Below the pieces are notes generated by a model that saw only the letters and a list, made by a program, of their open reading frames with translations, was not told where the DNA came from and made no database searches. Shown here piece by piece: positions 20,611-46,963 of a stretch of DNA of 64,000 nucleotides. Each line of letters opens with the position of its first letter. Position 1 is the stretch's first letter. This DNA is from Desulfobacteraceae bacterium UBA2245 (GTDB lineage: Bacteria; Desulfobacterota; Desulfobacteria; Desulfobacterales; UBA2245). The DNA lies in NCBI GenBank assembly GCA_002347265.1, contig DDYB01000032.1:193389-257388 (forward strand), given 5' to 3'. A program made the translations under genes and the position numbers.

Positions 20611-20814
20611 TCACTCCGCCCTTTCTTCTTTGCTGGTTTCAAGGTACATTACCTCGGCGCCGACCGCTTTGGCGATCTGATCAAGCTCCTGCTTCCGGAT
20701 ATGCTCGACGTAGAGTTTCAGATCTATGCCGCAGACGCCGATCACGCGGAACCGGGGCTTTTTTTCTCCTTTTTCAACCTTGCGACGTTCACGAACAAAA
20801 ATTTTTGCACTCAT
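20611..20814 (-). CDS. small conserved basic protein, paralog A (67 aa), unknown family
   Basis: AAGGAG RBS 6 nt upstream of the ATG. It is 36/58 identical, gap-free, to the 71-aa product of 31801..32016 (hand alignment). Confidence 0.72.
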   Translation of the reverse strand: MSAKIFVRERRKVEKGEKKPRFRVIGVCGIDLKLYVEHIRKQELDQIAKAVGAEVMYLETSKEERAE

Positions 20815-20894
20815 GGCGCTCTCCTTTCAAAAAATCGGGTTTGGGGGGCCGGCCTTCAATCAATTGATCTTGATGAAACCGGAATTTATATTTT

Positions 20895-20921
20895 ACATAT
20901 ATATCCTTAAAGGATATATGT
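20895..20921. promoter_or_regulatory. palindromic candidate operator immediately upstream of padR
   Basis: ATATATCCTT-A-AAGGATATAT has perfect 10-bp arms (20899..20908 / 20910..20919), flanked by ACAT...ATGT. It ends 8 nt before the padR ATG. Confidence 0.45.
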
Positions 20922-20928
20922 CAACAAT

Positions 20929-21318
20929 ATGAATCAAAAAAATACAAAAGATCCCGGCTCAGGCAAAAGGCAACGTTATATTCAGCCGTCAATTCTGATG
21001 AGTCTGAAATTAAAGTCTTCCTATGGGTACGAATTAATTCAGGAAATTCAAAAACTGGGGTTTGTGGAAGGATCGGCGCCTCCGGGCATGATCTACCGGC
21101 ACCTTCGGCAGCTGGAGGAGGAAGGCATGGTCTGCTCCGAATGGCATACCGAAGGCGCAGGACCGGCCAGGCGGATCTATCGCCTGACCCCGGAAGGCGA
21201 TGACATGCTCTATTCCTGGATCCAGTACATGGAGGATCAGGCCCGAAAACTTAAAGATTTTACCGAAGGGTACTATCGGATAACGGGCTGCCAAGGCACA
21301 AGCCATTCAATCGAATAA
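20929..21318 (+). CDS. PadR-family transcriptional regulator
   Basis: Winged-helix PadR pattern (ILMSLKLKSSYGYELIQEI...GMIYRHLRQLEEEGMV...RRIYRLTPEG). Confidence 0.85.
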   Translation: MNQKNTKDPGSGKRQRYIQPSILMSLKLKSSYGYELIQEIQKLGFVEGSAPPGMIYRHLRQLEEEGMVCSEWHTEGAGPARRIYRLTPEGDDMLYSWIQYMEDQARKLKDFTEGYYRITGCQGTSHSIE

Positions 21319-21337
21319 GAGGTGATGAAGACTGCAA

Positions 21338-21880: not shown

Positions 21881-23884
21881 ATGAGATTTGCGTGCAAGAT
21901 AGGGATGACTCTGATTCTCGGATGGTGCCTGGCGTTCCCCGCGCCGGGTTTTTCGAAAACAACGGAGGAACAGACGGAAGCCTACACACTGGGAGAGGTG
22001 GTGGTCACTGGAGAGCGGGAAGGCGTGGAGGCTGTGGGAACGGTCCGCGAAATTACGGCTGCGGATATTCAGCGCAATGGGGCCAGAACGCTGGACGAGG
22101 CTCTTGACCTCCTGCCGGGCATTCAGGTCCGGACGGGCAATGACGGAGTTCCCCGCGTCGATATGAGGGGCTTCCGTTCCAGGCACGTACTCCTGCTGCT
22201 CGACGGCATTCCCTTCAACTCCACCTCCGACGGTCAGTTTGACCCGACGACGATTCCCACGGAAAATATCGCCAGAATCAAAGTCTCTTACGGAAATCAT
22301 TCGGTGCTTTACGGGGAGGGCGGACTCGGCGGAGTCATCAATATCATCACCAAAAAGGGAACTGAAGGTATTCAGGGAAAGGTGTCGGCCGAGGCTTCCG
22401 AACGCAACAAGTGGCTGGGCCGTTTCAACCTTTCCGGGGCAAAAGATTCGGTGGATTTTTTTCTCGGGGGCAGCCTGATGGATTCGGACGGGTACCCTCT
22501 GTCGGATGATTTTGAAGAAACTCCTCACGAGGACGGGGGCCTGAGAGAAAACAGCGACCGGGAATCCGGCAATCTGTTTGCCAATGTCGGTTATAAGGCC
22601 ACCGACAGCCTGTCGCTGGGTCTTGTGTATAATTACCTGAAAGGCGAATACGGCAAGCCGCCGTCGACCATCGACAAGTCTATGGATCCGGATTTTGCCA
22701 AAAATCTCAAGTATGAACGGATGGATGACATCGAAGGAAACAGCGGCCAGGTATCTTTCAACTGGGATAACGGATCGCCTTTGAATCTGAGGGGTTGGGC
22801 ATATGCCAACCAGCAGGACGAGGAAACCAATTGTTACGATGACAACCGGTACAACAGCCAGAAAGCCAAGGGCGCATTTCATGAGGAAGCCAGAACGACC
22901 ATTTCCGGGGCAAACCTTCAGGGCGGTTGGGACATGGGTTCTGCAGGCCAGCTGACGATGGGACTCTCCCTGGCCGGGCAGGAATTTGAATCCTCCGGAT
23001 ATGAAATTCTGGATAAAAAGGGGACCAAAGGGTCTTTGGCGCTGGATAAAGAGCTTGATACGTATTCCGCTGCCCTGGAATACGAGGTCAATCCGCTGGA
23101 TTCACTTGGAATCACAATCGGGTACGGGCATCACTGGCTCGACAAGGAGGAGGGCAGCGACGACGATGACGGATCATTTTTGATCGGTGCCTACTATGAT
23201 CTTTTGCAGGATACAAGGCTTCGGGCATCCGTTGCCAGAAAAATTCGTTTTCCGTCCATCAAACAACTTTACGATGCGCCCAATGGCGGCAACGTAGATC
23301 TGACAACGGAAAGGTCTATGAATTACGAACTGGGCGTCGAGCAGCATCTGCCGATGAACAGCCGGATGACGCTGACCGGATTCTGGATCGATGTGGATGA
23401 TTATATTGAAAAGAATATTTACGCATCAGAAAATTTTGAGAACTATGAAGAATACCGCTTCAAGGGTTTTGAGCTGACAGCGGAAACCCGATTCATCGAG
23501 AACCTCATGCTCAGGGCCGGATATACCTATATGGAGACGGAGGACCGGTCGGCAGGCACGTTGAAAGATGAACTTCAGCACCGCCCGGAGCACAAGATCA
23601 CGCTGGAAGCAGGCTATGATTTCGATTTCGGTCTGTCGGTTTATGCGGCCCTGCTGCATGTGACCGACCAGTATTTTTACTCCGATACACTGACTCCGCC
23701 GGATAACAAAAGAGCGCTTAACGACTATACCGTGGTGAACCTCAGGCTCAGTCAGAAGCTGCCGAGCAGCGGTGTGAGCCTGTACGCTGGCGCGGACAAC
23801 CTGTTTGATGAGGATTACGAGGAAAGCTACGGGTCACCTCGGGAAGGACGGACGATGTATGCCGGAATTGAGTTCGAGTTCTGA
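21881..23884 (+). CDS. TonB-dependent outer-membrane receptor
   Basis: GGGAGGG RBS, signal peptide, TonB-box/plug (TLGEVVVTGERE, IKVSYGNHSVLYG), beta-barrel ending in YAGIEFEF. Confidence 0.88.
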   Translation: MRFACKIGMTLILGWCLAFPAPGFSKTTEEQTEAYTLGEVVVTGEREGVEAVGTVREITAADIQRNGARTLDEALDLLPGIQVRTGNDGVPRVDMRGFRSRHVLLLLDGIPFNSTSDGQFDPTTIPTENIARIKVSYGNHSVLYGEGGLGGVINIITKKGTEGIQGKVSAEASERNKWLGRFNLSGAKDSVDFFLGGSLMDSDGYPLSDDFEETPHEDGGLRENSDRESGNLFANVGYKATDSLSLGLVYNYLKGEYGKPPSTIDKSMDPDFAKNLKYERMDDIEGNSGQVSFNWDNGSPLNLRGWAYANQQDEETNCYDDNRYNSQKAKGAFHEEARTTISGANLQGGWDMGSAGQLTMGLSLAGQEFESSGYEILDKKGTKGSLALDKELDTYSAALEYEVNPLDSLGITIGYGHHWLDKEEGSDDDDGSFLIGAYYDLLQDTRLRASVARKIRFPSIKQLYDAPNGGNVDLTTERSMNYELGVEQHLPMNSRMTLTGFWIDVDDYIEKNIYASENFENYEEYRFKGFELTAETRFIENLMLRAGYTYMETEDRSAGTLKDELQHRPEHKITLEAGYDFDFGLSVYAALLHVTDQYFYSDTLTPPDNKRALNDYTVVNLRLSQKLPSSGVSLYAGADNLFDEDYEESYGSPREGRTMYAGIEFEF

Positions 23885-23911
23885 CGATCAGTTTTCCGGA
23901 GGTTTGTATAC

Positions 23912-25318
23912 GTGAAACCGGTTCTGAATATGGACCGTGTCTCATTCACGTATCCCGGTTCATCCGTTCCCGCCCTCAGCGATCTGTCGTTATCCATGGA
24001 TGCGGGTGAGTGCGTCTGCATCTCGGGGTCTACCGGATGCGGAAAAACCACGTTGCTGATGGCGGTTCAGGGACTGTTGAAAGATGGCGACAGACAGGGT
24101 TCGATTTCCATCCACCCGGTGCTGCCGGGACTGAATTCCGGCATGGTGTTTCAAAATGCGGAAACACAGATCCTGTGCAGCACGGTGGAGGATGAAGCCG
24201 CATTCTGGCCGGAAAATTGCGGAATGTCTGCAGACGACATCCGTTTGGCGGTCGGAGATGCCCTTGATGCGGTGGGGCTGGCGGGACTGCGGAATCGAAA
24301 TGTTGAAGCGCTTTCCGCCGGGCAGAAACATCGTCTGACGATTGCCTCCGTCCTGTCGATGAAGCCGGGTTTGATTCTCATGGATGAACCCTGCGGACAA
24401 CTTGACGCTCCCGGAAAGCGGCAGCTCATCGAGATACTGAACTATCTCAAACAAAGGGGTCATTCCCTGCTGATCGCAGATCATGAACTGGAGCCCTATC
24501 GATCGATTGCCGATCGATTCGTGCTGATGGAAAAAGGGCGCATTCAAAGGATTTCAGGGAAATTTCCTTCAGAGTACGAAATGTCGCGGGTTTTCGAAGG
24601 AATCAGCTCGGATCCGAGCTCCCGGTCATTCGGGCCGCCGGCTGTGGAGATCAGGAATCTTCAGGTAGCCGGGCCGGAAGGGGATCTACTGATTGATCAG
24701 CTGGATCTCACCGTCAGGCGTGGAGAGTTTGTTCATATCTACGGGATAAACGGATCCGGAAAGTCCACCTTTCTCAAGTGCGTCTGCGGATTTGTCCCTC
24801 CTGAATCCGGAATGATCCGGATTGCCGGAATCAATCGCCCCAGGCCCTGGCAGCTTGCGGGCAAGGCGGCCTTGTTGATGCAGAATCCGCAGCGCCAGCT
24901 GTTTGAAGACACTGTGTTTGACGAGGTCGCTTTTGTTTTGAAAATATCGGGGATGAAGGCGGATCAGGTTCGAGAGCGGGTCATGGAGACCCTGGAGGGC
25001 TGCGCCTTGAGCCACCTTGCCGATCGTTCTCCCCTGACCCTGAGCTTCGGCGAACAGCATCGGGTGGCGCTGGCATCCGTGATTGTTTCCGAACCGGAGG
25101 TGCTGCTGCTGGACGAGCCTTTTGCCGGTCTGGACGTTAACCGGCGACGCCAGACCATCCGGCAGATTGAAACGATTTGCCGGGACCGGAAAACGGCCGT
25201 GATAATGGCATCTCACAATCCCTTATACGCCGGGCATGGCGCGGATCAATCTCTGGCTCTGGAACACGGCCGTTTCAGTCCGGCGATTTTCAATAATCAG
25301 GATATGTCTCTTTCATGA
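23912..25318 (+). CDS. ECF-type ABC transporter, fused duplicated ATPase (EcfA-EcfA', CbiO-like)
   Basis: Two full ABC cassettes: GSTGCGKTT/LSAGQKHR/LILMDEP and GINGSGKST/LSFGEQHR/LLLDEP. Confidence 0.88.
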   Translation: MKPVLNMDRVSFTYPGSSVPALSDLSLSMDAGECVCISGSTGCGKTTLLMAVQGLLKDGDRQGSISIHPVLPGLNSGMVFQNAETQILCSTVEDEAAFWPENCGMSADDIRLAVGDALDAVGLAGLRNRNVEALSAGQKHRLTIASVLSMKPGLILMDEPCGQLDAPGKRQLIEILNYLKQRGHSLLIADHELEPYRSIADRFVLMEKGRIQRISGKFPSEYEMSRVFEGISSDPSSRSFGPPAVEIRNLQVAGPEGDLLIDQLDLTVRRGEFVHIYGINGSGKSTFLKCVCGFVPPESGMIRIAGINRPRPWQLAGKAALLMQNPQRQLFEDTVFDEVAFVLKISGMKADQVRERVMETLEGCALSHLADRSPLTLSFGEQHRVALASVIVSEPEVLLLDEPFAGLDVNRRRQTIRQIETICRDRKTAVIMASHNPLYAGHGADQSLALEHGRFSPAIFNNQDMSLS

Positions 25319-26004
25319 GTCTGAGTGCGTTTCAAAGAATCGGCTGGCAGTTCAGCGCTGTTGATTCCAGGCTTCACCGAATCAGCGCGGGCTGGAAAAT
25401 GGCGGGCATGCTCGCGATGTGTTCGGCGGCTTTTGTCGGGAAAAGCTTTCCAGCCCTGCTGGCACTGCTGGTCCTCAATGTCATCGGTTACCGTCTGGGG
25501 CGCGTGAAAGCCGTTGAAATGTGGAGAGACATGCGGTTTTTCATGATCCAGACAATGATCGTGGTAGCGCTGTATGTTCTGCGGGACGGAATTTATGATG
25601 GGGTGCTGCCCGGCCTGCGAACATCTCTTCAGATCCTGCTGTTTTTCATGCCGGGCGCTCTTTTTCTTCGCGTGACCCCGTCTTCCCAGCTGATGAGAAG
25701 TCTGCGCCGCTGGCTGCCGGAGCGGGTCGCATTTTTCGTGTTCATCAGTTTTCGTTTCATTCCGTATTTTGCAAGGGAGATATCCGACATATCCATGGCA
25801 CAGCAGCTTCGGGGCGCTCGAATCGACAAGCATTCCCTGGCCAATCCCCGAAACTGGCCGGGGCTGTTTCACTGCCTGATGGTTCCCCTCATGATACGGG
25901 TCATGAAAACCGCCGAGGATGCGGCGTTGTCGGCAGAGGCCAGAGGCTTTGGAAAAACCGGCCGTTCGCATTCCAGTTTTACAGTTGCGAAGGAGTGTGA
26001 ATGA
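25315..26004 (+). CDS. ECF transporter transmembrane T component (CbiQ/EcfT family)
   Basis: Polytopic protein with the C-terminal coupling motif region ...AQQLRGAR...ALSAEARGFG. It overlaps the ATPase gene by 4 nt. Confidence 0.8.
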   Translation: MSLSAFQRIGWQFSAVDSRLHRISAGWKMAGMLAMCSAAFVGKSFPALLALLVLNVIGYRLGRVKAVEMWRDMRFFMIQTMIVVALYVLRDGIYDGVLPGLRTSLQILLFFMPGALFLRVTPSSQLMRSLRRWLPERVAFFVFISFRFIPYFAREISDISMAQQLRGARIDKHSLANPRNWPGLFHCLMVPLMIRVMKTAEDAALSAEARGFGKTGRSHSSFTVAKECE

Positions 26005-27397: not shown

Positions 27398-27592
27398 GAA
27401 AATAAAGGTTAATCGCTTCACGATGTCCATTGAACCGGCGGAGAGCCGCTCCTGGTTCTCCCCTGCTGCTATGTCTGTCATGACATGGCTGTCTGTATGT
27501 CTGACATCCGGAAAAGCAGGACCAATCGATCCTTCATACTCTTGTTATAAATTATCGTTATTTGTCATTATAAGCTATAATTAACAACTTTC

Positions 27593-27620: not shown

Positions 27621-27661
27621 ATGCTTTAACAATGCCCGAAAATAACAGGTGGCAGTGGATC

Positions 27662-28000
27662 ATGTCAAAAACACGGATGAATACGCGGGAAGTCGCGGAA
27701 TATTCGATGTCGCCGATAAACAAGGTCTATGCCATAGTCAAATCCAGGCTGTTTCCGGCCACGCGGATAACCGGAAAGCGGCTTTTCCCCAGAAATCTAA
27801 TTGACGAATATGCCCGGTCCGTTTTTTCGGAGTCGAGGCAGAGAAACCGGAATACGGTGCTGGGTCAGAACGCTTTTTTTGAAAAGTCGGTGCAGATTTT
27901 GATGGCGGTTTTCCATGACCCGGCTTTCCGTCCGCGGGTCGTGGGAATGAGCGGCTATGACTTTTCCGATTCCGGACAGATTATTGGTTCTTCCACCTGA
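27662..28000 (+). CDS. excisionase/MerR-like HTH_17 DNA-binding protein
   Basis: MNTREVAEYSMSPINKVYAIVKSRLFPATRITGKRLFPRNLIDEY fits the HTH_17 pattern. The start is ambiguous (27632 or 27662). Confidence 0.55.
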   Translation: MSKTRMNTREVAEYSMSPINKVYAIVKSRLFPATRITGKRLFPRNLIDEYARSVFSESRQRNRNTVLGQNAFFEKSVQILMAVFHDPAFRPRVVGMSGYDFSDSGQIIGSST

Positions 28001-28092: not shown

Positions 28093-28947
28093 ATGAAAAG
28101 GCTGTTTATTTATCTTTTTATGTTTCTCTGGATAGGGTTTCCAGGAGCGGCAAACGCCCTTGACGGCAGTCAGTTTATTCTTCTGTCCTCAACCATCGGC
28201 CCGATCGATTCCGGCATTGTCGATGTTCTGGAAAACCAGTTTGAAAACGAAACCGGCATCCGGGTGCGCCATGTCGGCGCCGGGACAGGGGCGGCGTTGA
28301 ATATTGCCCGCAAAGGCAGCATCGACCTCGTGATGGTCCATGCCAAATCCCTGGAGGAAAAGTTCATTCAGGAAGGTTTTGGGACCCGGCGAATTCCTCT
28401 GATGTATAACGATTTCGTTCTGGTCGGCCCTGCCTCGGATCCTGCCGGCATACGGGGAATGAAAACAGCCGCGGAAGCGCTTCGCCGGATTTCGGAGAAA
28501 GGCGTCTCCTTTATCAGCCGGGGGGACAAGTCGGGAACGAACGTGGCCGAGATGGAACTCTGGGAAAAGGCGGGGCTCAAGCCCTCCGCGCCCTGGTACG
28601 CCATTTATGAAAAGGGGTCCGAAGGCAATTCCGCCACATTGAAGTATACCAACCAGCAGGAGGGTTATACGGTTATTGACAGGGCCACTTATCTCGCCCT
28701 GAAGGATCAGATTCAACTGGTTATCCTCGTCGAAGGCGACGAAGCCATGCTGAACTACATCAGCCTTATCCCCGTGGATCAGAAAAAATTCAAAACGGTC
28801 AACGCGACCGACACGATGCGTTTTGTGAACTGGCTGACCGACCCGGAAAAGGGACAGGCCGTCATCAAGGGCTTCGGAAAAGATAAATACGGCGCCCCCC
28901 TGTTCTTTCCCAATTCGGAAGACTGGCAAAAAACTAAAGGAAAATAG
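28093..28947 (+). CDS. TupA-family periplasmic oxyanion-binding protein, divergent paralog
   Basis: Signal peptide and SRGDKSGTN and NDFVLVGP motifs shared with TupA, but SSTIGPIDSG replaces the TTTSTQDSG anion-binding loop. Confidence 0.8.
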   Translation: MKRLFIYLFMFLWIGFPGAANALDGSQFILLSSTIGPIDSGIVDVLENQFENETGIRVRHVGAGTGAALNIARKGSIDLVMVHAKSLEEKFIQEGFGTRRIPLMYNDFVLVGPASDPAGIRGMKTAAEALRRISEKGVSFISRGDKSGTNVAEMELWEKAGLKPSAPWYAIYEKGSEGNSATLKYTNQQEGYTVIDRATYLALKDQIQLVILVEGDEAMLNYISLIPVDQKKFKTVNATDTMRFVNWLTDPEKGQAVIKGFGKDKYGAPLFFPNSEDWQKTKGK

Positions 28948-31800: not shown

Positions 31801-32016
31801 ATGGCAGGTAGAATTTTTTACCGGGAACGCCGGAAGGTCGCCGAAGGGGAAAAGAAGCCGCGGTTCACTCTGGTCGCCGTAACGGGTGTTGATCTCACCT
31901 TCTATCCGAAACACATGCGCAAACAGGAACTGGAACAGATTGCCGAAGCGGTTGGGGCGGAATTGATTCTGCTGAAAGACGGCGAAAAAGGCGAGGAAGT
32001 GGAAGTCACGGAATAG
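31801..32016 (+). CDS. small conserved basic protein, paralog B (71 aa), unknown family
   Basis: AAGGAGG RBS 7 nt upstream. Paralog of 20611..20814. Tightly packed between tupC and the MoSto-like gene. Confidence 0.78.
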   Translation: MAGRIFYRERRKVAEGEKKPRFTLVAVTGVDLTFYPKHMRKQELEQIAEAVGAELILLKDGEKGEEVEVTE

Positions 32017-32032: not shown

Positions 32033-32863
32033 ATGGGACTTTGGCGCGAAAGGGACGGACGACGTCTGCATGTAAAGAGTAAACTGATGGGGGAAAGTCT
32101 GATCAGCAAATCGTTTATGGAAAGTTTCACTGTTGCTCCGCAACGGAGGCTTTTCCCGGATGTGAACATTATCAAGATCGGAGGTCAATCCATCTGTGAC
32201 CGGGGCGTCAAGGCCCTTCCCCCGATAATTGAAGAAATTGTGGCGAACAAGAAAGAGCACAAGATGCTCATCACAACAGGAGGCGGGACCCGCAGCCGGC
32301 ATATTTATTCCATTGGCCTGGAACTGGGCATGCCGACGGGCATCATTGCCAAATTCGGCAGCTCCATCTCGGAACAGAATGCGCTGCTGGTGTCCACACT
32401 GCTGTCTTCCTGGGGCGGAATCAAGATCGGACATGATGAGGTCATCAAACTGTCAACCTACTTCGCTCAGGGCTGCATCCCCGTCATGCACGGGATGCCT
32501 CCCTATGATTATTTCGCTTTGCCGGCAAAAGGATGGCGCATCCCCATTCACCGAACGGATGTAGGCACCCTGATTCTGGCGGACCTGATCGGAGCACGCA
32601 ACTGTATCTATGTAAAGGATGAAGAGGGGCTGTATACGGATGATCCCAAAAAGAATTCCGATGCCGAATTCGTCCCCGAAATCAGCGCGTCGGAACTTCT
32701 GGCACAGGACTTTGACGATTTGATCATTGAACGGCCCTGCCTTGAGATTCTGCAGAACAGCGAGGTTATCGACAGCATTCAGATTGTCAACGGCCAGCAT
32801 GCGGGCAACATCACCCGGGCATTGAAGGGCGAACATGTGGGAACCATAATTCATAAAGGATAG
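32033..32863 (+). CDS. molybdenum storage protein (MoSto, MosA/MosB)-like amino-acid-kinase-family protein
   Basis: The amino acid kinase fold (IIKIGGQS, LITTGGGTRSRH) and the C-terminal GEHVGTIIHKG closely parallel the Azotobacter MosB sequence as recalled (GEHVGTLIRTG). GGAGGGAG RBS. Confidence 0.78.
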   Translation: MGLWRERDGRRLHVKSKLMGESLISKSFMESFTVAPQRRLFPDVNIIKIGGQSICDRGVKALPPIIEEIVANKKEHKMLITTGGGTRSRHIYSIGLELGMPTGIIAKFGSSISEQNALLVSTLLSSWGGIKIGHDEVIKLSTYFAQGCIPVMHGMPPYDYFALPAKGWRIPIHRTDVGTLILADLIGARNCIYVKDEEGLYTDDPKKNSDAEFVPEISASELLAQDFDDLIIERPCLEILQNSEVIDSIQIVNGQHAGNITRALKGEHVGTIIHKG

Positions 32864-33096
32864 CGCATCTCTCTGCAAATAGCTCTGCGACATCTACAGC
32901 GATCAAACGGTCAGATGAAGTAAAAATACAACCTGATGGGAAAAAGCCCATCAGGTCATGCAAAGTCACTGACGAGCCCAACCCGGAGGTCGCTGTACCG
33001 CGTAATTGCTAATAACCCATTGCATTATAACGCAATTCATACCGCCTTAATTGCGCTCAACCCTTCAAATTCAGTTCAAAAACAGATTCGAAGCTC

Positions 33097-33117
33097 AACC
33101 GGCTCAGCCGGTTTTTT
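33097..33117 (+). terminator. rho-independent terminator
   Basis: AACCGGC-tca-GCCGGTT followed by a T-run (GTTTTTTG). It lies about 235 nt after the MoSto-like stop codon. Confidence 0.6.
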
Positions 33118-33189
33118 GACGGCTGTCGGCATGTGCATCAGCAATGACGGTGTGACCGCCGCAATCGAAATGCGATAATGATTCACGAA

Positions 33190-34335
33190 TTACAGCTCGG
33201 CGATGATTTTGCCCGTGACGGCGGCCTCGTAGCCGGGAATCGCATCGATCTCTCTGCGCAGGGCCGCGGACTGGAGGACGTCCAGAAGGATTTTGACCGT
33301 GGGGTGACCGATCAAGTCGCCAGGAATGACTAGGTCGCACCGGACAGCCGTGATGGGAACGAAATCCAGGCTGAAAGCTTCGGCAATGGCCCTTAATCCC
33401 AGGGCGGCATCGGCCACGCTGCAGGCAACGCGGTAGGCGCCTTCGCGGTGGGAGGTCACTTCGTTACGATATCCACTGATGGCAGTTGTATTCACACCGG
33501 CGCTTTGCAGACAGTCGTCCAGCAGAATCCGCAGGGCCGCGCCCGGCTCACGGTTGACAAAACGAACCATGGGTCTGGCGAGATCGATAACGGAATGAAT
33601 GCCCAGAGGATTGCCCCTGGCCACCATCAAGCCCTCCTCCAGAAGCGAAAATCCCAGAATGCTTCCGTGTACTCCCGCCAGTTTCTGGCTGGCCAGGACC
33701 ACATTGGACTCCGTTTTGCCCGTGTTGTGCAGATGGATTCCGGCCACATGGGTCAAGCCTTCGGCCAGAGCGTTGAGAGCGCGATGAGTTGAGGCGAACC
33801 GGCAGTGTACGCGCGCGTCGGGCGCCATACGGGAAACGTAATGGGCGAGGATCTCAAAGGCCGGATCACAGCCCATCAGAATGAGGGTCTTATCGAGACA
33901 GCGCGAATGTGAAAAGATCTGCGCGCTTTTTCCGTCCCGGGTCAACAAGCCGTCCGCCGGGCGCAGGCCGAATCCAACGGACTCAGGACCCTGCAGAGAA
34001 ATACCCACCAGTCGATCACGGACCATCCCCAAAGCCAGCCGGGATGATGGCGCCTTTTGACCGTTGATTACATGAACTGGCCGCGTGTTTGGGGGTTCCT
34101 GTTCGGTGAACAGATCTTCCACCCGGCATTCGAAAATGCGGGCCAGACGAAGCGCGATGGCGGTATTGGGCAGATATCGCCCGGATTCAATGTCGTAAAT
34201 CGCCTGGCGCCGAACGTCGATTTCCTCGGCCAGCTTTTCCTGAGACCATCCCCTGGCCAGGCGGAATTGCTTGACCTTGCACGTAATGGCGTTGCTTTGT
34301 CGGGTCATAGGCCTTTTCTGTTCAAGTTTTGTCAT
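33190..34335 (-). CDS. XRE-family HTH regulator fused to a PBP-like (molybdate/tungstate-binding-type, PF12727-like) sensor domain
   Basis: N-terminal RLARGWSQEKLAEEIDVRRQAIYDIESG HTH. The C-terminal 250 aa follow the PBP_like pattern (GCDPA..., VAGIHL, VNREPGAALRILLD, ADAALGLRAIAEAF). Confidence 0.75.
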   Translation of the reverse strand: MTKLEQKRPMTRQSNAITCKVKQFRLARGWSQEKLAEEIDVRRQAIYDIESGRYLPNTAIALRLARIFECRVEDLFTEQEPPNTRPVHVINGQKAPSSRLALGMVRDRLVGISLQGPESVGFGLRPADGLLTRDGKSAQIFSHSRCLDKTLILMGCDPAFEILAHYVSRMAPDARVHCRFASTHRALNALAEGLTHVAGIHLHNTGKTESNVVLASQKLAGVHGSILGFSLLEEGLMVARGNPLGIHSVIDLARPMVRFVNREPGAALRILLDDCLQSAGVNTTAISGYRNEVTSHREGAYRVACSVADAALGLRAIAEAFSLDFVPITAVRCDLVIPGDLIGHPTVKILLDVLQSAALRREIDAIPGYEAAVTGKIIAEL

Positions 34336-34562
34336 TCCCCTGAGAAAATTTTATTGACCAATTTCATATCGTATGCAATGAGTTTCTGTCAAATGACAAT
34401 TAAAAACGTCATAATTGCATAAATTATACTTCAAACATTATATGATGTTGTTTTGGTCCAAATTGCAACAGCAGTTTTCAAGCGGTCAGCCCGAATGGCA
34501 TCGATCATCGAAACAGACGCCGCATGCCATTCAGACTGCCTCAAGGGAGAAATTCACAGGAA

Positions 34563-36944: not shown

Positions 36945-36950
36945 TTCGTT

Positions 36951-38066: not shown

Positions 38067-38353
38067 CCGGGTGTTTGAGAAATAAGATTCAAACCTTTCT
38101 CGGACACAATTCGCATTGGATGCAATGCTTCCGAATGCATTGATTTTCCGCTATCCCCCATCAATCGATTCCTGATTTCCCATCCTGTTTTTTATTATGT
38201 TTTTTATTGACATCGAGGGATTGTATGGTATTTAACTGTGCCTTATATGACATATATCAGGATCGGCATATTGAGACTTTTTCAAGCCGTAAAATATATT
38301 TTGTACCGTGATGAAATGAATCGGTAATAAACATATTGCGAAAGGAGTTTCCA

Positions 38354-40027
38354 ATGTTTAACGGCAATACCCGCATGATTTCGGAAAATCATCAAATCGG
38401 TTCGTATTCCTTTGAAGATTATATGGATCTGGTCAAATCATTTCACGGGTATGCTGCGCCCGGCGTTATCATTGGAGGCTTCATGGTCGATCTGGCGCTG
38501 AAAAATCTTCCGGACGGAGAGTTTTTCGATGCCGTCTGTGAAACAACCGCATGCCTGCCGGACGCCATTCAACTGCTGACGCCCTGCACGCTTGGCAACG
38601 GCTGGCTCAAGGTTTACGACTTCAACCGGTATGCGCTGACCATGTACAACAAGGAGAATGGAAAGGGCGTGAGAGTTGCTCTGAGCACTTCGGCGGTTCG
38701 CGTCTGGCCCGATATCAACAATTGGTTTTTCAAGCTTAAAACCAAGAAGGAACAGGACCCGCAGCGACTGAACGAGGCGATCAAGAATGCAGGCCATAGC
38801 ATATGCAAGATGGAGCAGGTCGAGGTGAATTCCGAGGTACTGAAGCGCAAATCCAGAGGAGGCGTCGCCGTTTGCGCCATATGCGGGGAATCCTTTCGAA
38901 CGAACGGGGGAACCGTCTGCCGTGCCTGTCATGGAGAGATGTATTACCGGACTTCCGTCGGGGCCGCTCAGATTTTGAATGCGCCCAGTATGCCTGCGCT
39001 CAAATCCACACCGGTCGAACAGGCCGTGGGGCTTGCCGCACTTCATGACATGACGGAAATCATTCCCGGCAAGCTGAAGAAACCTGTTTTTAAGCGGGGA
39101 CAGGAGCTCTCCATCGGAGATGTCTGCCACCTGCAGCGGATGGGAAAAAATCATGTTTATCTGAGTCAGGAAAATCCGGTCGGAGATGAATGGGTCAACG
39201 AGGATCAGGCGGCAATAGCCTTTGCCGCGGCCATGACAGGGCCGGGCGTTGCCGTCGGCGGCAAGCCCAGCGAAGGTAAGGTGAATCTGGAAGCGACCCT
39301 GGACGGGCTTCTGGTGGTTGAAGTCGAGCAGTTGAAACGGTTTAATCTGGTTCCGGAAGTCATTTGCGGATGCCTGAAAAACTTCACGCAGGTTTCCAAG
39401 GGCCAGAAGTTTGCGGCGACCCGTGCCATTCCTTTGTTCATGCGGCGGGAAAATCATACCCGGGCCCTGGATGTTCTGACTGAAAAGCCGCTGTTTAAAG
39501 TCCTTCCCATGCGCAAGGCTTCCGTCGGCCTGCTGGTGACCGGCGAGGAGGTGGCCAAGGGGTTGGTGGAGGACAGATTCATTCCGATCCTGGAAAAGAA
39601 GCTCAAACGCTATGACTGCCGGATTGTCGGAAAGGAAATTGTTCCCGACGACCGCGGAAAAATTTCATCCGCCGTGACCCGCATGATTCAAGCCGGCGCC
39701 GATATGGTGATCGCAACGGCGGGAATGTCGGTGGATCCGGATGATTGTACGCGCCAGGGAATCATCGATGCAGGCGCCTCCCAGATTCTTTACGGCGCTC
39801 CGATTGTTCCCGGCGCCATGATTATGCTGGCCCAGATCGACTCGGTTCAGGTTTTTGGCGTTCCGGCATGCGCCCTGTATTTCGATGTCACCAGCTTCGA
39901 TCTCCTCCTGCCCCGGCTTCTGGCGGGCGTTCCTGTCACAAGGGAAGATCTGGCTCAGATGGGACACGGGTCTTTCTGTCAGGAATGCAAGGTCTGTGTT
40001 TTTCCCCGTTGTTCCGTCGGCAGATAA
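38354..40027 (+). CDS. fusion protein: FmdE-like domain + zinc ribbon + MoeA-like/MoCF-biosynthesis (molybdopterin-binding) domain
   Basis: N-terminus FHGYAAPGVIIGG...CLPDAIQLLTPCTLGNG (FmdE pattern) and CAICGE...CRAC. C-terminal half has an MoeA-like start (TPVEQAVGLAALHDM) and an MoCF domain (GLLVTGEEV...ADMVIATAGMSVDPDD). Confidence 0.7.
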   Translation: MFNGNTRMISENHQIGSYSFEDYMDLVKSFHGYAAPGVIIGGFMVDLALKNLPDGEFFDAVCETTACLPDAIQLLTPCTLGNGWLKVYDFNRYALTMYNKENGKGVRVALSTSAVRVWPDINNWFFKLKTKKEQDPQRLNEAIKNAGHSICKMEQVEVNSEVLKRKSRGGVAVCAICGESFRTNGGTVCRACHGEMYYRTSVGAAQILNAPSMPALKSTPVEQAVGLAALHDMTEIIPGKLKKPVFKRGQELSIGDVCHLQRMGKNHVYLSQENPVGDEWVNEDQAAIAFAAAMTGPGVAVGGKPSEGKVNLEATLDGLLVVEVEQLKRFNLVPEVICGCLKNFTQVSKGQKFAATRAIPLFMRRENHTRALDVLTEKPLFKVLPMRKASVGLLVTGEEVAKGLVEDRFIPILEKKLKRYDCRIVGKEIVPDDRGKISSAVTRMIQAGADMVIATAGMSVDPDDCTRQGIIDAGASQILYGAPIVPGAMIMLAQIDSVQVFGVPACALYFDVTSFDLLLPRLLAGVPVTREDLAQMGHGSFCQECKVCVFPRCSVGR

Positions 40028-41567: not shown

Positions 41568-42311
41568 TTATCCCAGCAGGTTTCTGACAGACCGCTTCAG
41601 GGGCGCCGTCATCTTGGCGAGGGCGGCCATCCGCGAGATGCCCGCCGGACCCTGTGCTACCAGATTCTTGTGATAGAACTCCGGTTTGTCCGTGATCAGG
41701 TAAATGACCCGGACCTCTTCCGCGTCGATCAACTGGGCCTCGGGATAGTCTTTCTTGACAACGGCGAGACGTTTTTTCGCTTCTTCAAGCATTTTCTCCC
41801 GGTCTCCAAAGGTGATCGCCGAGGTGGGGCAGGCCTTTGCGCACATGGGAATGAGCCCTGCGGCCACACGCTCGTAGCACATATCGCATTTGTTGATAAT
41901 TCCGGTGGCGTCGTCGCGTCTCGGAATATCATAGGGGCATGCGCTTTTCATCTCGTCGAAGGCCTCTTTGGGCAGCTGTTTGGCTTTGTCGGTGTAAACC
42001 ACAGCGCCCGTGGCTTCGTCGAAGACGACGGCGCCCTGCATATAGCCGTCGGCCATGTCTTTGCAGGGCGGCTGCAGGCAGTGGCGGCACTGGTCGCTCA
42101 TGAAGTTCCACGTAACCGTGTCGCCGATTTTATGCTCCTGAAAACGAACGATCTTAAAGTTTTTGGGATTCAGGTCGGGTGGATTCTGATGGCTACCCCA
42201 ACCGATCTGCGTGGTCTTGTTTGCAGCGAATCCCTGCCATTCCTTGCAGGCGACCTGGCATCCCCGGCACGCCGTGCACCGTGTTACATCGATCAAAAAT
42301 GTCTTTGACAT
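41568..42311 (-). CDS. fdhB: formate dehydrogenase iron-sulfur (beta) subunit
   Basis: Multiple 4Fe-4S motifs (CTACRGCQVAC, CRHCLQPPC, CDMCYERV, CAKACP). Confidence 0.88.
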   Translation of the reverse strand: MSKTFLIDVTRCTACRGCQVACKEWQGFAANKTTQIGWGSHQNPPDLNPKNFKIVRFQEHKIGDTVTWNFMSDQCRHCLQPPCKDMADGYMQGAVVFDEATGAVVYTDKAKQLPKEAFDEMKSACPYDIPRRDDATGIINKCDMCYERVAAGLIPMCAKACPTSAITFGDREKMLEEAKKRLAVVKKDYPEAQLIDAEEVRVIYLITDKPEFYHKNLVAQGPAGISRMAALAKMTAPLKRSVRNLLG

Positions 42312-42370: not shown

Positions 42371-45300
42371 TTATGACAGTTCGGTCAACTTGTCCGCCTT
42401 CTTGAGGTTGACGCAGCAGGCCTTGTATTCAGGAATGGAGGTGTTTGGATCACCCGCCGATACGCACAGGCGGTTGGTTGCATCGCCCACTCCGGGAGTG
42501 GTCCAGCCAAAGGCAAAGGGCATTCCAATTTCGTGAACGGTCTTGCCCTGGATCTTGAACGGAGTCATGCGCATGGTGACCATGGCCACGGCTTCGACTC
42601 TTCCTCTGGCGCTCTCAACAATTACGCCGTCGCCGTTCTTGATTCCCTTTTCCTTGGCCAGTTCCTCGCTCATCTCAACGTAGAGCTGGGGTTCGGCTTC
42701 CAGCAGGGAGGGTACATTTCGCGTTTCCCCGCCGCCGCACCAGTGTTCCGTCAGGCTGTAGGTGGTCAGAACGATGGGATACTTCGAATCACCGGGCGTC
42801 GCCCGCTTGTCCATATCGCTCTCAATAATCTTGGCGCAGGGGTTGCTGAGCTGCTTGGAGAAGGGGTGCTTCTTGACCGGGGTTTCGATCGGTTCGTAAT
42901 GCTCGGAGAATGGTCCTTCCTCGCGTCCGGGGCCGTAGAGAGCGCCGTGTCCTTCCTTCTGCATGATGAAGGGATATTTGCCCTTGCCGGTCGCCATCGG
43001 CGGCCAGCCGCCGTCCGGAACATCGCCGATCCATTTGCTTCCATCCCACTCGATGACGACTCGGGTCGGATCCCAGGGCTTTCCGTTCAGGTCGACCGAA
43101 GCCCGGTTATACAGGACTCTCCGGTTGACCGGCCAGCACCAGGAATAGCCCGGGAAGAGGCCGATTTTTGCCTGAAGATCGGTCTGGGACAGGTCGCGAT
43201 TCTTCATCTTGTTGCCCGCTTCTTCCGTATAGCTTCCGGTGTAGAGCCAGTTCCGGGAGCTGGTCGATCCGTCGTCGGCCAGATTGGCGAAGCTGGGCAC
43301 CAGGGACCCCGCCTTGTACGTCTTGTCTTTAATGGTGGTGTCTTTGAGGAAGAAACCGTTGCATTCTTTTGCGATTTGATCTGCATCAAAATGGGAGGGC
43401 CAGTTCAGATTCACAATCGGTTCCGGAAATACGCCGCCTTCTTCCCTGTAAAGCTTTCTTACCGCGTTCATGATTTCCACCATGGTCTCGCCCATGGATT
43501 TGGATTCGCCCGCCGGTTCGGCGGCCTTATAATGCCACAATACCCAGCGTCCGCTGTTGCTGATGCTGCCTTCCTTTTCCACGCGGTGGCAGGCTGGGAA
43601 CAGGAACACTTCGGTTTTGATGTCCTTGGGATTGACCCCAGGGCGGTGCCAGAAATCGGTGGTCTCGTTTTGATGAATTTCGGAGATATACAGCCAGTCG
43701 AGGTTGTCCATCGCTTTCCGGACCTTGGTGGTGTTGGGTATGCTCTGGGCCGGGTTGTGCGCCCAGATCGAGCCGCCCTTGATTTTCCCCTTGTACATCC
43801 GGTCGAATATATGCAGGTGTGAGTAGTCGCCCTGCACCAGGCCTTTCGGGGTATCGCCTTTCGGAACCCAGCTATAACCGAAATCGTTTTCCGGAGTTGC
43901 TGCTTCGCCGAACCAGGATTTCAGCAGGCTGACCACGTATTTCGGGCGGTTTTGCCACCAGTTGGCGCTCAGAGGATCATTGCTGATCGGAGTGTTCGCC
44001 TTCTGATAGTCTGCCAGCGTGGGCCAGTGGGCGCGGGGCACCGAATGGTAGCCGGGCAGGATATGATAGAGGATGCAGTGGTCGGTGGAACCCTGAACGT
44101 TGGGTTCGCCGCGTAGCGCGTTGATGCCGCCGCCGGCAACGCCTATGTTGCCCAGCAGGAGCTGAACGATCGCGCTGGTCCGGATGTTCTGGACGCCGAC
44201 CGTATGCTGGGTCCATCCCAGGGCGTACATGACTGTGCCGGCCTTGTCCTTTTGTCCGGTCGCGGCATACGTCTCATACACCTTGAGCAGGTTTTTCTCT
44301 GAAACGCCGGTGATCGCCGAAACATTCTTTAAATCGTACCGGGAATAGTGTTTTTTCAGAAGCTGGAACACGCATTTCGGATTCTTCAGGGTTTTATCTC
44401 TTTTCGGAACCCCGTTGGCATCCACGGCAAACGCCCAGGCTTTTTTATCGTAAGTGCTCAATTTCTTGTCAAAGCCGGAAAACAGGCCGTCTTTGAAACC
44501 GAATTTGTCTCCGACGATGAAAGATGCGTTGGTGTATTCGGTAACGTATTCCTTGAAATATTTCTCTTTGTCGATGATGTATTTGATCATGCCGCCCAGA
44601 AACGCGATATCCGTTCCGGAGCGAAGGGGTACGTGAAAATCAGACCGTGCCGAGGTTCTGGAGAATTTGGGGTCCACATGGATGATGGTGGCTCCTCTTT
44701 CTTCCCTGGCCTTCATAACCCATTTGAAGCAAATGGGGTGATGCTCGGCAGCATTGCTGCCCATAATCAAAGCACAGTCCGTGTTTTTAATATCAATCCA
44801 GTGATTGGTCATCGCGCCGCGTCCGAACGACTCTCCCAGAGCCGCAACAGTTGCGCTGTGTCAGATACGGGCCTGATGATCCATGTGAACGACGCCCATC
44901 GCACGCAGTGCCTGATGAACGACGGAGCATTCCTCGTTGCTCATCTGGGAGGAGCCCAGGTGAAAAATTTCCTCCACCCGGTTGACGACCTGTCCGCTTT
45001 CGTTGGTGGCTTTAAAATTCTTGTCGCGGGTGTCTTTGATATTCCGCGCCAATTTTTCCAGCATCCACTCCCAACTCTTTTCTTCCCACTTGTCGCTGTA
45101 CGGAGCGCGGTACTTGGGCTTCAGGACCCGGTGGTGGCTGTTGATCATGGAATTCATGGTCGCGCCTTTTGCGCAGAGGGCGCCTTCGCTGACCGGATAG
45201 CCCGGATCGCCTTCGGTGCTCACAACCTTGCCGTCCCTTACATGCGCAATGTAATGGCAGCATACTGAACAGAACGGGCAGATCGAGATGACTTCCTTCG

Positions 45301-45427
45301 CGCCCTTGATCTTCAGCTCCTTTGCATACGCATTTGCTGGGGCCAGAGCGAAACCCAGCTGGCTCAGGGCGATTGTCGCCGCCCCGGCGCCGGTTACCTT
45401 CATAAAAACTCGCCGTGTTACATCCAT
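42371..45427 (-). CDS. fdhA: periplasmic formate dehydrogenase catalytic subunit, selenocysteine-containing (in-frame TGA at 44861..44863)
   Basis: ORFs 44861..45571 and 42371..44812 are in the same frame. Reading through the TGA gives ...HMDHQARI-U-HSATVAALGESFGRGAMTNHW, the canonical Sec context. Tat signal MDVTRRVFMK with a GGGGAGG RBS. Confidence 0.92.
44827..44845 (-). promoter_or_regulatory. candidate SECIS hairpin downstream of the UGA(Sec) codon
   Basis: The mRNA reads GCGGCUCU-GGG-AGAGUCGU (8 bp including one G-U), starting 19 nt from the U of UGA. Confidence 0.45.
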
Positions 45428-45884
45428 TAGTTGCCTCCCCTCTTTCAATTGTCTTGCTGATGATTTGTAACCTGCAACCTTTTCAGCGCTTTTACCAGGA
45501 TCACGCCGCTTCCGTTTGCTGCCGGAGAAAATTTTCACCGAATAGACGCGCCGCGAGTTCTGATATGACAAAGCGTCGAGTTATCATTTACGGAACCACT
45601 CAGTTCAAATTGAATACTTGATACAGGAGAATCGAATTGTCAAGGCTTTTTGGAATAAAAATTCAATAATTTTAATATGTTACGAATAGCATATATCGGG
45701 GGCGGCTGGCAGAACAGTACGTGCTTTCGGAAAATAATTTGACATCGGATAAGTAATATGTCATTTTTGACATAAATGAAAAACAGCTTCCACGCATTCA
45801 AATTCATGGATTTCAGGCTTCCGGAGCATGAAATGCGGAATATTGAAAAATGATGGACCTGTAAGAATCAGAAAGGAGAAGACA

Positions 45885-46208
45885 ATGCATATGATCCGGA
45901 AGGACAAAATAAGAGCAACAGACATCGGGACCGCGGCGCCTGTCATTAGGCGTCTGGGTTTTGATATGAAGCCGGTCGCGGCCTACGCATCAAGTCTGAA
46001 AGTCCAGGGCGTTCGGGAGATGAGTTGCATCTGCCCGCTTTGCTCCGCCGGCTGTCACTGTATTGCCCACGTGCAAGGCCGTGAGGTCGTCAGAACCGAA
46101 GGCGAGGCCGGCGATCCGGTCGGAAACAGCGAATGCGCCCTGCGCTCAAAAGGCGCCGCCATGCTGCCTGTGATCGCGGCGGAACTGAACATCCTCAGCG
46201 GAAAATAA
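45885..46208 (+). pseudogene. relic of the N-terminus of a second FdhA-type catalytic subunit (107 codons, then stop)
   Basis: SSLKVQGVREMSCICPLCSAGCHCIAHVQGREVVRTEGEAGDPV aligns with fdhA KELKIKGAKEVISICPFCSVCCHYIAHVRDGKVVSTEGDPGYPV. The twin-arginine motif is lost and nothing follows after about residue 107. Confidence 0.55.
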
Positions 46209-46582
46209 GCTCCGGTCTGAGGATGATCATGAGAACAGGGCGGTCTTGAAAATGAAAGAATCCGCACAGTGGATCCTGCCCGTATAGGATAAAAAATTCC
46301 GGAACGCCCGCAGGAATGACTCCTCGCCAGCTGCATGAACCCGCCCTTCCAATCTGTCAAGATTTCAGAACGTCCCTCTCTTGCGACCTTATTGAGTTTG
46401 AAAATCGTTTTTGTTTATGCTAATTTGAACATAATTTAATTCGCTGCCTTTTTGAACGCAGGTTGAGTGCGGCATTCAAAAAACCAGTCTGGCTCCGGCC
46501 GGGCGCTCGACAGCGGGCATGCCCGGGTCGCCGTATTTAAATGATCGATTAAACGAATGATTCCGTTAACAGAGGGCCGGGA

Positions 46583-46963
46583 ATGAAAAATATCGATACA
46601 ACGATGCGTATCCGTTTGTGGTTTGAGACCGACAGCCAGATGTTGTTCGGCCTGGGCCGGGTCCTGCTGTTGAAAAAAGTCGATGAGTGCGGATCACTTT
46701 ACAAGGCGGCAAAGGAAATAGGGATGTCCTACCGCGCCGCCTGGGGGAAAATCAAAGCCACCGAAAGCGAACTCGGCGTCAAACTGCTCACGAAAGCTCC
46801 GGGTGAAAAGCGGTACCGTCTGTCCGAAAACGGCCGGCTTCTGCTGGATAATTTTGATGCATGGTGCCGCGACATCGAGGAGATGGCGCTTCAAAAGGCC
46901 CGGAATATCTTCCCCTGGCAAATCCGCAAATTCGATACAAAAGAAATAAATAACATTCCGTGA
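46583..46963 (+). CDS. ModE N-terminal-domain-like wHTH regulator lacking Mop/TOBE domains (second copy)
   Basis: GSLYKAAKEIGMSYRAAWGKIKATE... is a paralog of 40116..40538. Confidence 0.75.
   Translation: MKNIDTTMRIRLWFETDSQMLFGLGRVLLLKKVDECGSLYKAAKEIGMSYRAAWGKIKATESELGVKLLTKAPGEKRYRLSENGRLLLDNFDAWCRDIEEMALQKARNIFPWQIRKFDTKEINNIP

Follow-up and report, generated by a model that had tools for sequence, protein, structure and literature searches.

In the present study, we analysed a 64-kb stretch of DNA from Desulfobacteraceae bacterium UBA2245 (contig DDYB01000032.1; the whole stretch of 64,000 nucleotides is called the window), in which a first-pass annotation had assigned the region 20.6-47 kb to molybdenum (Mo) and tungsten (W) uptake, storage, cofactor handling, regulation and enzymes. 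Scanning of six-frame open reading frames (ORFs) with Pfam and NCBIfam gave an uninterrupted run of about 26 Mo/W-related genes in 20.6-47.0 kb (Table 1). All genes named by that annotation were found by the Pfam and NCBIfam scans at or near their expected places, and the single Mo/W theme that it saw in at least 20 consecutive genes was borne out by the unbroken run. The left flank carries housekeeping genes (SHMT, NrdR, rib genes, GcpE, ProRS, RelA/SpoT, BamD and NAD synthase) and the right flank genes for a P-type ATPase, PCMT, an acyl ligase, Crp and Dus; since housekeeping genes lie on both sides, the proposed boundaries of the block are right. A GC-rich hairpin at 20338-20610 (CCACCACCGGGG...CCGGGTGGTGG), 3' of the small1 gene, marks the left end of the cluster beside the NAD synthase gene. 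No tRNA or integration signs of an island were found in the window, and its GC content is unremarkable. The gene order is identical in three independent assemblies (ENA, JGI and Logan) of methanogenic hydrocarbon-degrading enrichments, and a chimera is excluded because of this identity. Judged by the Mo/W storage protein (MoSto) homologue, the closest named relatives are a metagenome-assembled genome labelled Desulfobacterales (95%) and Syntrophus species (88-90%). That unrelated operons came together by chance, or that the order is an assembly artefact, is hardly credible: the sequence is metagenome-derived and contains two gene relics, TaoR-like and fdhA', which record rearrangements, but the order is the same in the three assemblies and in the 95% relative, the modules co-occur repeatedly elsewhere and operators are shared among them.

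Table 1. Genes and regulatory sites of the Mo/W block (window positions; a dot marks sites given without strand; PWM, position weight matrix score in bits)
Feature	Position	Strand	Remarks
small1, 67-aa basic protein	20611..20814	-	divergent from PadR; paralogue of small2; no Pfam match
Putative PadR operator, TATATCC-N5-GGATATA	20900..20918	.	abuts TTGACA -35 box of small1 promoter
PadR-family regulator	20929..21318	+	PF03551, E 2.3e-17
TonB-dependent outer-membrane receptor (TBDT)	21881..23884	+	Plug and barrel domains
Energy-coupling factor (ECF) fused double ATPase, 468 aa	23912-25318	+	two PF00005 domains
ECF T component CbiQ	25315-26004	+	PF02361, E 1.1e-19
ECF S-like membrane protein, 189 aa	26001-26570	+	weak PF09819 similarity
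TiaS-like protein, 245 aa	26660..27397	+	TCKD kinase-like domain only; from model and profile
Remnant of TaoR-family (HTH_17 + PBP_like) regulator	27632..28000	+	122-aa ORF; sensor deleted in frame
tupA1, TupA paralogue with divergent anion-site motif	28093..28947	+	E 1.8e-56 to 3LR1
tupA2	29069-29956	+	canonical TTTSTQDSGLL motif
tupB	29957-30655	+	
tupC with TOBE	30652-31752	+	
small2, 71-aa basic protein	31801..32016	+	directly 5' of MoSto-like gene; conserved linkage
MoSto-like, single beta-type Mo/W storage protein homologue	32033..32863	+	MosB/MosA homology
XRE-HTH + PBP_like regulator, predicted oxyanion sensor	33190..34335	-	PF01381 + PF12727, E 7.6e-49
DUF364	34563-35288	+	Pfam
modA (SBP_bac_11)	35446-36246	+	
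modB, permease	36246-36944	+	
modC, ATPase with C-terminal TOBE	36963-38066	+	
Operator A, tandem, 16 bp apart (starts 38234/38250)	38234..38273	.	upstream of FmdE fusion; PWM 20.8, 14.5
FmdE + treble-clef Zn finger + MoeA-domain-III/MogA-like (MoCF_biosynth) fusion	38354..40027	+	Pfam
ModE-N1, HTH_1-only, 140 aa	40116..40538	+	PF00126, E 9e-13
fdhE	40605-41483	-	
fdhB	41568-42311	-	
fdhA	42371-45427	-	selenocysteine (Sec) TGA 44861-44863; Tat motif TRRVFMK
Operator A, second match	45673-45696	.	between fdhA and relic; PWM 18.7
Operator A, perfect, TATGTCATTTTTGACATA	45757-45774	.	between fdhA and relic; PWM match from 45754, 31.5
Relic of second, diverged fdhA, 126 aa	45828..46208	+	Tat/Fe4S4 N-terminus only; weak PF04879
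Operator A match	46413-46436	.	before ModE-N2
ModE-N2, HTH_1-only, 126 aa	46583..46963	+	PF00126, E 3e-10

The storage protein proposed for the block is a homologue of MosB, with the correction that it is a lone beta-type subunit. It aligns over residues 15-273 with Azotobacter vinelandii MosB (E 1e-69) and MosA (E 6e-49), is about 50% identical to MosB over the full length, and belongs to the amino-acid/UMP kinase family (PF00696), in which its match to UMP kinase is much weaker (E 6e-08). More than 545 relatives were found in GTDB species genomes, and 80 of their loci, one genome per GTDB species, were scanned by tblastn with all window proteins; the counts for the gene trio described here cover the 67 loci with enough upstream sequence. 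The gene for a small basic protein lies 5' of the MoSto-like gene in all 67 loci and the TiaS-like gene in 65 of them, on the same strand and at about -240 bp and -980 bp, respectively. The genes small1, small2 (58% identical paralogues) and the 245-aa gene are core members of the cluster rather than flanking filler. A second MoSto subtype, represented in Syntrophobacter fumaroxidans, is also beta-like, and no alpha-like MoSto gene was seen in the 67 loci assessed; because both subtypes are beta-like, these organisms have a single beta-type subunit without alpha.

The two partners of the storage protein could be described in some detail. The small-protein family has 326 close homologues and 176 representatives (among 1.84 billion), all of them short and unfused, and these representatives gave neither a Pfam match nor an informative Rosetta-stone fusion; there was no structural match in the PDB (best E 0.25) and no TOBE match. 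Its invariant residues include R8, R10, K12, K18, R21, H38, R40 and K41, the C-terminal tail is acidic and the predicted fold is beta-beta-alpha-beta. The 245-aa protein likewise has no Pfam match. Its AlphaFold2 model (pLDDT 89.8) found TiaS as the sole significant PDB match (Foldseek E 8.5e-9, about 160-190 residues), and its sequence profile reaches TiaS residues 1-163 (E 5.6e-6). The N-terminal MRVxxGxDDTD motif is kept, with D8, D9, T10 and D11 invariant, and the matches stop at TiaS residues 163 to about 190, the tRNA-binding OB-fold and zinc-ribbon domains of TiaS being absent. The trio of TiaS-like kinase, basic protein of about 70 aa and lone beta-type MoSto is thus widely conserved, and it may be a new metal store. 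It has to be weighed against this that the three proteins could form a phosphotransfer pathway acting on a cofactor or nucleotide. The kinase family of MoSto, the fold match of the TiaS-like protein to the TCKD of TiaS, which is a kinase, and the missing alpha partner of the Azotobacter cage would all suit such a pathway, but the full-length identity to MosB far exceeds the resemblance to UMP kinases, the linkage to tup and mod genes is persistent, and one operator (operator A, below) is common to the trio, fdhA and modA, so that we regard this explanation as improbable. A hairpin with a 13-bp stem at 32928-32959, just 3' of the MoSto gene, is probably its terminator; an ORF of 80 aa (32936-33178) that overlaps this hairpin has no homologues and was rejected as spurious.

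The neighbourhood of the trio was equally informative. Among the 67 loci, its neighbours include tup genes in 33, a PBP_like regulator in 24, mod genes in 19, fdh genes in 18 and a ModE-N gene in 9. The commonest extended form runs TaoR-like, tupA1, tupA2, tupB, tupC, TiaS-like, small, MoSto, and in Syntrophus buswellii the genes for a tungsten-type aldehyde:ferredoxin oxidoreductase (AOR) and a ferredoxin stand 3' of MoSto (locus L015:11401-13918). Overall, the TBDT/ECF genes, small proteins, PadR and the FmdE fusion recur beside tup, mod, fdh or MoSto-like genes in more than 100 other loci, and the conservation of synteny expected from the first-pass annotation was found. In a distant lineage (L006:1966-9785), the small-MoSto pair lies beside an HTH_20-PBP_like regulator, a large fn3-like protein, an S-component-like membrane protein, two uncharacterised proteins, ExbB, DUF2149 and a TiaS-like gene, with PASTA and Asp23 genes among the neighbours; this arrangement may serve the same system as an alternative uptake apparatus. 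DDE_5 transposase genes adjoin the module in two unrelated loci (L015:2402-3739 and L007:7342-8526), which hints at mobility.

Both TupA paralogues of the block were confirmed by their matches to solved TupA structures, and TupBC was identified in the domain scans. TupA2 matches 3MUQ (E 1.6e-73), 5MY5 (E 2.2e-71) and 3LR1 (E 4.6e-63) with the anion-site motif ATTTSTQDSGLL, and its NCBIfam TupA score of 242.6 is under the equivalog cut-off of 400. TupA1 keeps a TupA-like fold despite lacking the TTTS motif; its anion site, SSTIGPIDSGIV, follows the pattern [AS]STIGPIDSGIV in place of TTTSTQDSGLL. Because this difference is conserved in 27 loci, TupA1 is a maintained paralogue with a different anion site, and its gene is always directly 5' of a canonical tupA2 (related loci are, for example, L013, L015 and L025). 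From the motif, the ligand specificity of TupA1 may differ from that of TupA2. The HTH_17 ORF in front of tupA1 had been counted among four regulator types; PadR, the XRE-PBP_like protein and the two ModE-like proteins of that list are present, but this ORF is a TaoR-family remnant with its sensor deleted. Its alignment to the 310-aa S. buswellii regulator covers residues 5-72 and 262-310, so that the helix-turn-helix (HTH; E 8e-5) and the C-terminal tail are kept and residues about 73-261 are gone, and the 95% relative (L011) has the same deletion plus a frameshift. Judged from these alignments, it is a decaying TaoR-family gene and no separate regulator type. The combination of HTH_17 and PBP_like defines the TaoR family of tungsten-responsive regulators (PMC11980592, PMC10102598).

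On the left side of the block, small1 and PadR are divergently transcribed. The window PadR is 64% identical to its S. fumaroxidans orthologue, which is itself located between a TiaS-like gene and small1, and TTGACA followed by TATATCC-N5-GGATATA was present in 25/25 PadR-small1 intergenic regions examined. The sole good match to this palindrome in the window overlaps the small1 promoter, with no further PadR operator found in the window, for example before the TBDT gene. These sequence features suggest that PadR probably represses small1 and itself, and in hybrid loci also a small1-ECF operon. The TBDT falls under every NCBIfam subfamily cut-off, and its orthologues stand 5' of TiaS-like/ECF genes in L010, L095-L097, L102, L123, L159, L170 and L172. 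In L095, L097, L123, L159 and L010, the region upstream of the TBDT gene has a sigma-70-like promoter that is strongly conserved (TTGACAAAAT...TATTAT) and, after it, a leader of some 100 nt; no conserved leader RNA structure was found there (-1.5 kcal/mol), the conservation being limited to the promoter. In the S-like family, 9/10 members match PF09819 weakly and below the cut-off (best E 3.9e-4), Arg/His/Lys residues are conserved, and no PDB sequence match was obtained.

A metagenome scan anchored on the TiaS-like gene found small/MoSto, ECF or both at every informative locus. In one context, TiaSL-PadR(-)-small1(+)-MoSto(-) (TiaSL, the TiaS-like gene) occurs as in S. fumaroxidans beside a MOT1-family transporter, and in the other TBDT-TiaSL-ECF(AA,T,S) is formed. 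Since the TiaS-like gene occurs alternatively in TBDT+ECF operons, the importer is tied to the trio, and hybrids of the form TBDT-TiaSL-PadR-small1-ECF were found in L102, L170 and L172 and ECF-modBC in L113. The placing of the importer within the block is thus supported by its company elsewhere, namely the TiaS-like gene, PadR and small1. We also considered that the TBDT + ECF + TiaS-like operon imports another cargo (cobalt, corrinoid, thiamine/pterin precursors or a siderophore) and that its adjacency to tup is coincidental. The Pfam names CbiQ and ABC_cobalt, the best sub-threshold similarities of the TBDT (siderophore and B12 receptors), the fused ATPase, which resembles YkoD-type vitamin ECF systems, and weak fold matches of the TiaS-like model to the pterin pyrophosphokinase HPPK speak for another cargo. 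Against it, the same TiaS-like orthologue group is the one found directly 5' of small-MoSto in 65/67 loci, the hybrids put PadR-controlled small1 before ECF and ECF beside modBC, and in L006 small-MoSto is flanked by the S-like protein, ExbB, the TiaS-like gene and a PBP_like regulator. Furthermore, no molybdenum cofactor (Moco), thiamine pyrophosphate or cobalamin riboswitch was found in the window at gathering score or E<=5, the sole match being a weak selenocysteine insertion sequence (SECIS), and the leader has no conserved structure. We therefore judge another cargo unlikely.

Two single loci of these scans are described here in their own right. In S. fumaroxidans (CP000478, L009:6940-9718), genes for a MOT1-family molybdate transporter, an extracytoplasmic-function sigma factor, a zf-HC2 anti-sigma factor and a Metal_resist protein are directly 5' of TiaSL-PadR-small1-MoSto. 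A metagenome contig (L096:3139-14000) contains both MoSto subtypes, of which one converges with small1 and the other lies behind tupBC-small2, and with its TBDT-ECF-TiaSL-PadR genes it is the closest to the window layout outside the window lineage.

On the right side, the XRE-PBP_like regulator is divergent from DUF364-modABC, and its PBP_like domain is the sensor type of TaoR (PMC11980592). ModABC and DUF364 are both present as annotated, but DUF364, for which there was no PDB sequence match, is upstream of modA and not after modC. The domains of the FmdE/MoeA-like fusion were also confirmed: the N-terminal half matches PDB 3D00 (E 2e-62) and the C-terminal part MoeA domain III. The fusion family has 1089 homologues, and in three unrelated contigs the gene adjoins Sec-type formate dehydrogenase (FDH) or other molybdopterin oxidoreductase genes, tupABC-like and HTH_1-only genes, FdhD/FdhE and a TOBE protein, as in the order Fur-tupABC-FmdE fusion-ModE-N-fdhD-fdhA(Sec)-fdhB-fdhE of L092. 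From its domains and neighbours, we predict that it handles the W/Mo cofactor, and it is a candidate cofactor-insertion helper. Neither ModE-N1 nor ModE-N2 had a Pfam match to TOBE.

The Sec-FdhAB-FdhE operon holds as described. The in-frame TGA of fdhA is at the active-site position (...HQARI-U-HSATV...) with homology on both sides, and the protein has Fe4S4, molybdopterin and dinucleotide-binding domains and a Tat signal. It matches over its full length the Sec-FdhA of Desulfovibrio vulgaris (6SDR, about 1250 bits) and that of D. gigas (1H0H, 1206 bits). The candidate SECIS of fdhA is a weak SECIS_3 match of 28 bits against a gathering score of 63, with a hairpin present (z = -0.22). Of the second fdhA, a relic was likewise found: an N-terminal fragment on the opposite strand with 43% identity to FdhA residues 1-105, beyond which the downstream sequence has no homology.

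The regulatory sequences connect these parts. Operator A, TATGTCA-N4-TGACATA, gave 57 sites in 1.2 Mb of related loci with at most 2 mismatches, whereas 60 control palindromes made by permuting the half-sites averaged 2.5 sites, with 12 at most. None of the 57 sites is inside a labelled gene, and they precede fdhA (17), the TiaS-like gene (17), modA (12) and fdhE (8) by no more than 450 bp, often in tandem and 16 bp apart across loci. When the window was scored with a PWM built from the related-locus sites, five matches of at least 12 bits were obtained, compared with 0.25 in shuffles, and all of them are in promoters of the right-hand modules. The shared operators argue in silico for co-regulation, and the co-located HTH_1-only ModE-N proteins are, from their co-location, the likeliest binders. 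In the 64-kb window, TGTCA-N(0-8)-TGACA palindromes occur only at 27476-27485, 34387-34398 and 45759-45772 (spacings 0, 2 and 4), all three in promoter regions of the cluster, and only the N4 copy fits the conserved operator. A conserved TGTCA palindrome as the TaoR operator was rejected, being absent upstream of intact TaoR-like genes, and for this reason the three window palindromes are not one operator. Outside the cluster, three long window ORFs have no Pfam match at E<=1e-5, namely 51284-53701 (+, 805 aa), 59189-60175 (+, 328 aa) and 17595-18110 (-, 171 aa).

The block stands out by its consolidation: almost the whole gene set of this syntrophic deltaproteobacterium for W and Mo uptake, storage, sensing and use is gathered in 26 kb. 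In the 10 kb on each side of the MoSto gene, 12 module categories were counted for the window lineage, whereas the 50 other loci compared, each at least 15 kb, have at most 7 (median 5). The window lineage is the most consolidated of the sampled lineages; by themselves the modules are common, and only this lineage and its 95% relative unite them in a single block. With about 20 further genes attached, the block is far more elaborate than the classical modE-modABC arrangement, as had been claimed. We consider it likely that the block is a consolidated W/Mo supply chain of a Syntrophus-related bacterium, built from modules that are separate or in smaller combinations in its relatives. In the first module, PadR and its divergent, probable target small1 stand beside a TBDT and ECF operon ending in the TiaS-like protein, which would use ATP. 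In the second, tupA1-tupA2-tupB-tupC-small2-MoSto would couple high-affinity tungstate uptake to cytoplasmic storage, with the small basic and TiaS-like proteins as obligatory partners of the store. The third would be the XRE-PBP_like sensor regulator divergent from DUF364-modABC, an attached molybdate uptake, and the fourth the FmdE/MoeA-like fusion and ModE-N beside the W/Sec-type fdhA-fdhB-fdhE, with the second ModE-N and the dead fdhA alongside. Control would be exerted by sensor-bearing (XRE-PBP_like) and sensor-less (ModE-N and PadR) regulators.

The first-pass annotation had read the block as a coordinated W-versus-Mo decision module, in which sensors would tell the oxyanions apart and switch between Tup/W and Mod/Mo branches and alternative FDHs. 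The presence of both tup and mod, of two regulators of PBP_like lineage and of two ModE-N genes is consistent with a switch, as is the conserved altered anion-site motif of TupA1, which could give a second specificity; metal-dependent switching of FDH isoenzymes is known in Desulfovibrio. But the block has one functional FDH only, its other fdhA copy being dead; the TaoR-like gene is in decay and without its sensor domain; both ModE-N proteins lack any metal-binding domain; and no sequence feature examined reports selectivity or any decision logic. We did not retain this claim, and a decision module of this kind seems rather unlikely to us. The evidence leans to tungsten because FdhA is closest to Desulfovibrio W/Sec FdhAB, TupA2 has the canonical motif and AOR follows the S. 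buswellii trio; a tungsten-centred supply chain for a W/Sec formate dehydrogenase fits better, and the metal stored would be mainly W.

As the preferred mechanism of this supply chain, we propose that tungstate brought in by TupBC, or W/Mo species that are bulkier or chelated and arrive through TBDT+ECF, would enter a homo-oligomeric cage of beta-type MoSto. The small basic protein would carry or gate the oxyanion, and the energy-dependent loading for which the alpha subunit serves in Azotobacter would be provided or controlled by the TiaS-like ATP-using domain. MoSto is known to store Mo and W as polyoxometalates, for which ATP is needed (PMC6448029). The roles of the partners are suggested by gene linkage, and the mechanism is tentative. 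The ECF/TBDT importer, to judge from the same linkage, would import W/Mo species, probably chelated or bulky, and hand them to the TiaS-like, small and MoSto proteins, and binding of operator A by ModE-N would couple fdh, cofactor handling, mod and storage to the metal status. Taken together, a trio that is an ATP-driven W (or Mo) storage or hand-over system and a TBDT/ECF pair that is a new W/Mo uptake route, both wired to fdh and modABC through the ModE-N operator, make a possible but by no means favoured combination. Several points weigh against our reading: the ECF parts carry Pfam names that suggest cobalt, and the S component is matched below threshold; operator A is present in about 7/11 of the loci with a ModE-N gene within reach; the tup-small2-MoSto operon of the window has only a weak match to it (11 bits) and its native TaoR regulator is dead; and DUF364 adjoins mod in only 2 other loci.

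Mo/W gene clusters, the TaoR and ModE regulons, TupABC, MoSto and W/Sec-FDH are already known. In the searchable literature, we found no description of the trio, its coupling to TBDT/ECF, the TupA1 subtype, operator A or the PadR-small1 unit, and a 2019 paper on MoSto stated that the protein has 'no known homologs'. MoSto has hitherto been treated as an Azotobacter curiosity, and beta-type homologues with two fixed, uncharacterised partners are here found in hundreds of anaerobe genomes, inside tungstate-transport operons. If our proposals are true, the TBDT and ECF with an Arg/His-rich S component would be the first ECF-type W/Mo importer, and the storage system would be widespread in syntrophic and other anaerobic Desulfobacterota. 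Interspecies electron transfer by syntrophic degraders of fatty acids, aromatics and alkanes relies on W/Sec formate dehydrogenases, therefore the securing and buffering of scarce tungsten bears on methanogenic carbon turnover. The hypotheses are testable, namely a new W store, an ECF/TBDT route for W/Mo, a second specificity class of TupA, a role for sensor-less ModE-N and an FmdE-MoeA-like helper, and in the window organism all parts lie on one clonable 26-kb fragment.

The modules resemble known systems and differ from each of them. The block shares with the E. coli-type modE-modABC a ModA/B/C set with TOBE-bearing ModC and a nearby HTH_1 regulator of the ModE N-terminal type, but the window regulators are without the di-TOBE molybdate-binding half; the ModE box is TATAT-rich, and the predicted TATGTCA-N4-TGACATA differs from it. 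The operon with a fused A-A ATPase, a CbiQ-type T component, a small S-like protein and a TBDT in front is like Group-I ECF systems (CbiMNQO, YkoEDC) with a BtuB-type TBDT, although its S component is only remotely PF09819-like, no riboswitch was found in the window and it is linked to MoSto, tup and mod. The TiaS-like protein shares the N-terminal TCKD fold and MRVxxGxDDTD with archaeal TiaS (tRNA-Ile2 agmatidine synthetase) and differs in having 245 aa without OB-fold and Zn-ribbon, and in its bacterial, metal-homeostasis context. FdhAB resembles the periplasmic W/Sec FdhAB of D. vulgaris and D. gigas in its score, Sec codon, Tat signal, 4Fe-4S FdhB and nearby FdhE, whereas the block is without fdhD, the operon has two ModE-N genes and a second, dead fdhA at its flanks, and the metal content is predicted only. 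Small TOBE molbindins (Mop, and the W-storage protein Tub of Eubacterium limosum; PMC11980592) are likewise cytoplasmic proteins of about 70 aa in W/Mo loci; small1 and small2 have no TOBE, Pfam or structural match and are predicted as beta-beta-alpha-beta with an acidic tail. In the TaoR/tupABC/aor regulon of Desulfovibrio (Rajeev et al. 2019, as cited in PMC11980592 and PMC10102598), an HTH_17 + PBP_like regulator also stands beside tupABC and W enzymes, and intact TaoR-like genes precede tupA1 in Syntrophus and many other loci, with AOR following in S. buswellii. In the window, by contrast, the TaoR-like sensor is lost and there is an XRE-HTH + PBP_like protein in its stead, two conserved types of tupA have arisen by duplication and the storage genes are inside the operon. 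Finally, the MoSto-like protein has about 50% identity, the same length and the same fold family as MosB of A. vinelandii, in which paralogous alpha and beta subunits are encoded together (mosA/mosB) and form (alpha-beta)3. In the window there is one beta-type gene, its hosts are strict anaerobes without an obvious link to nitrogenase, and it is always paired with the basic protein of about 70 aa and the TiaS-like protein and embedded in tup/mod/fdh loci.

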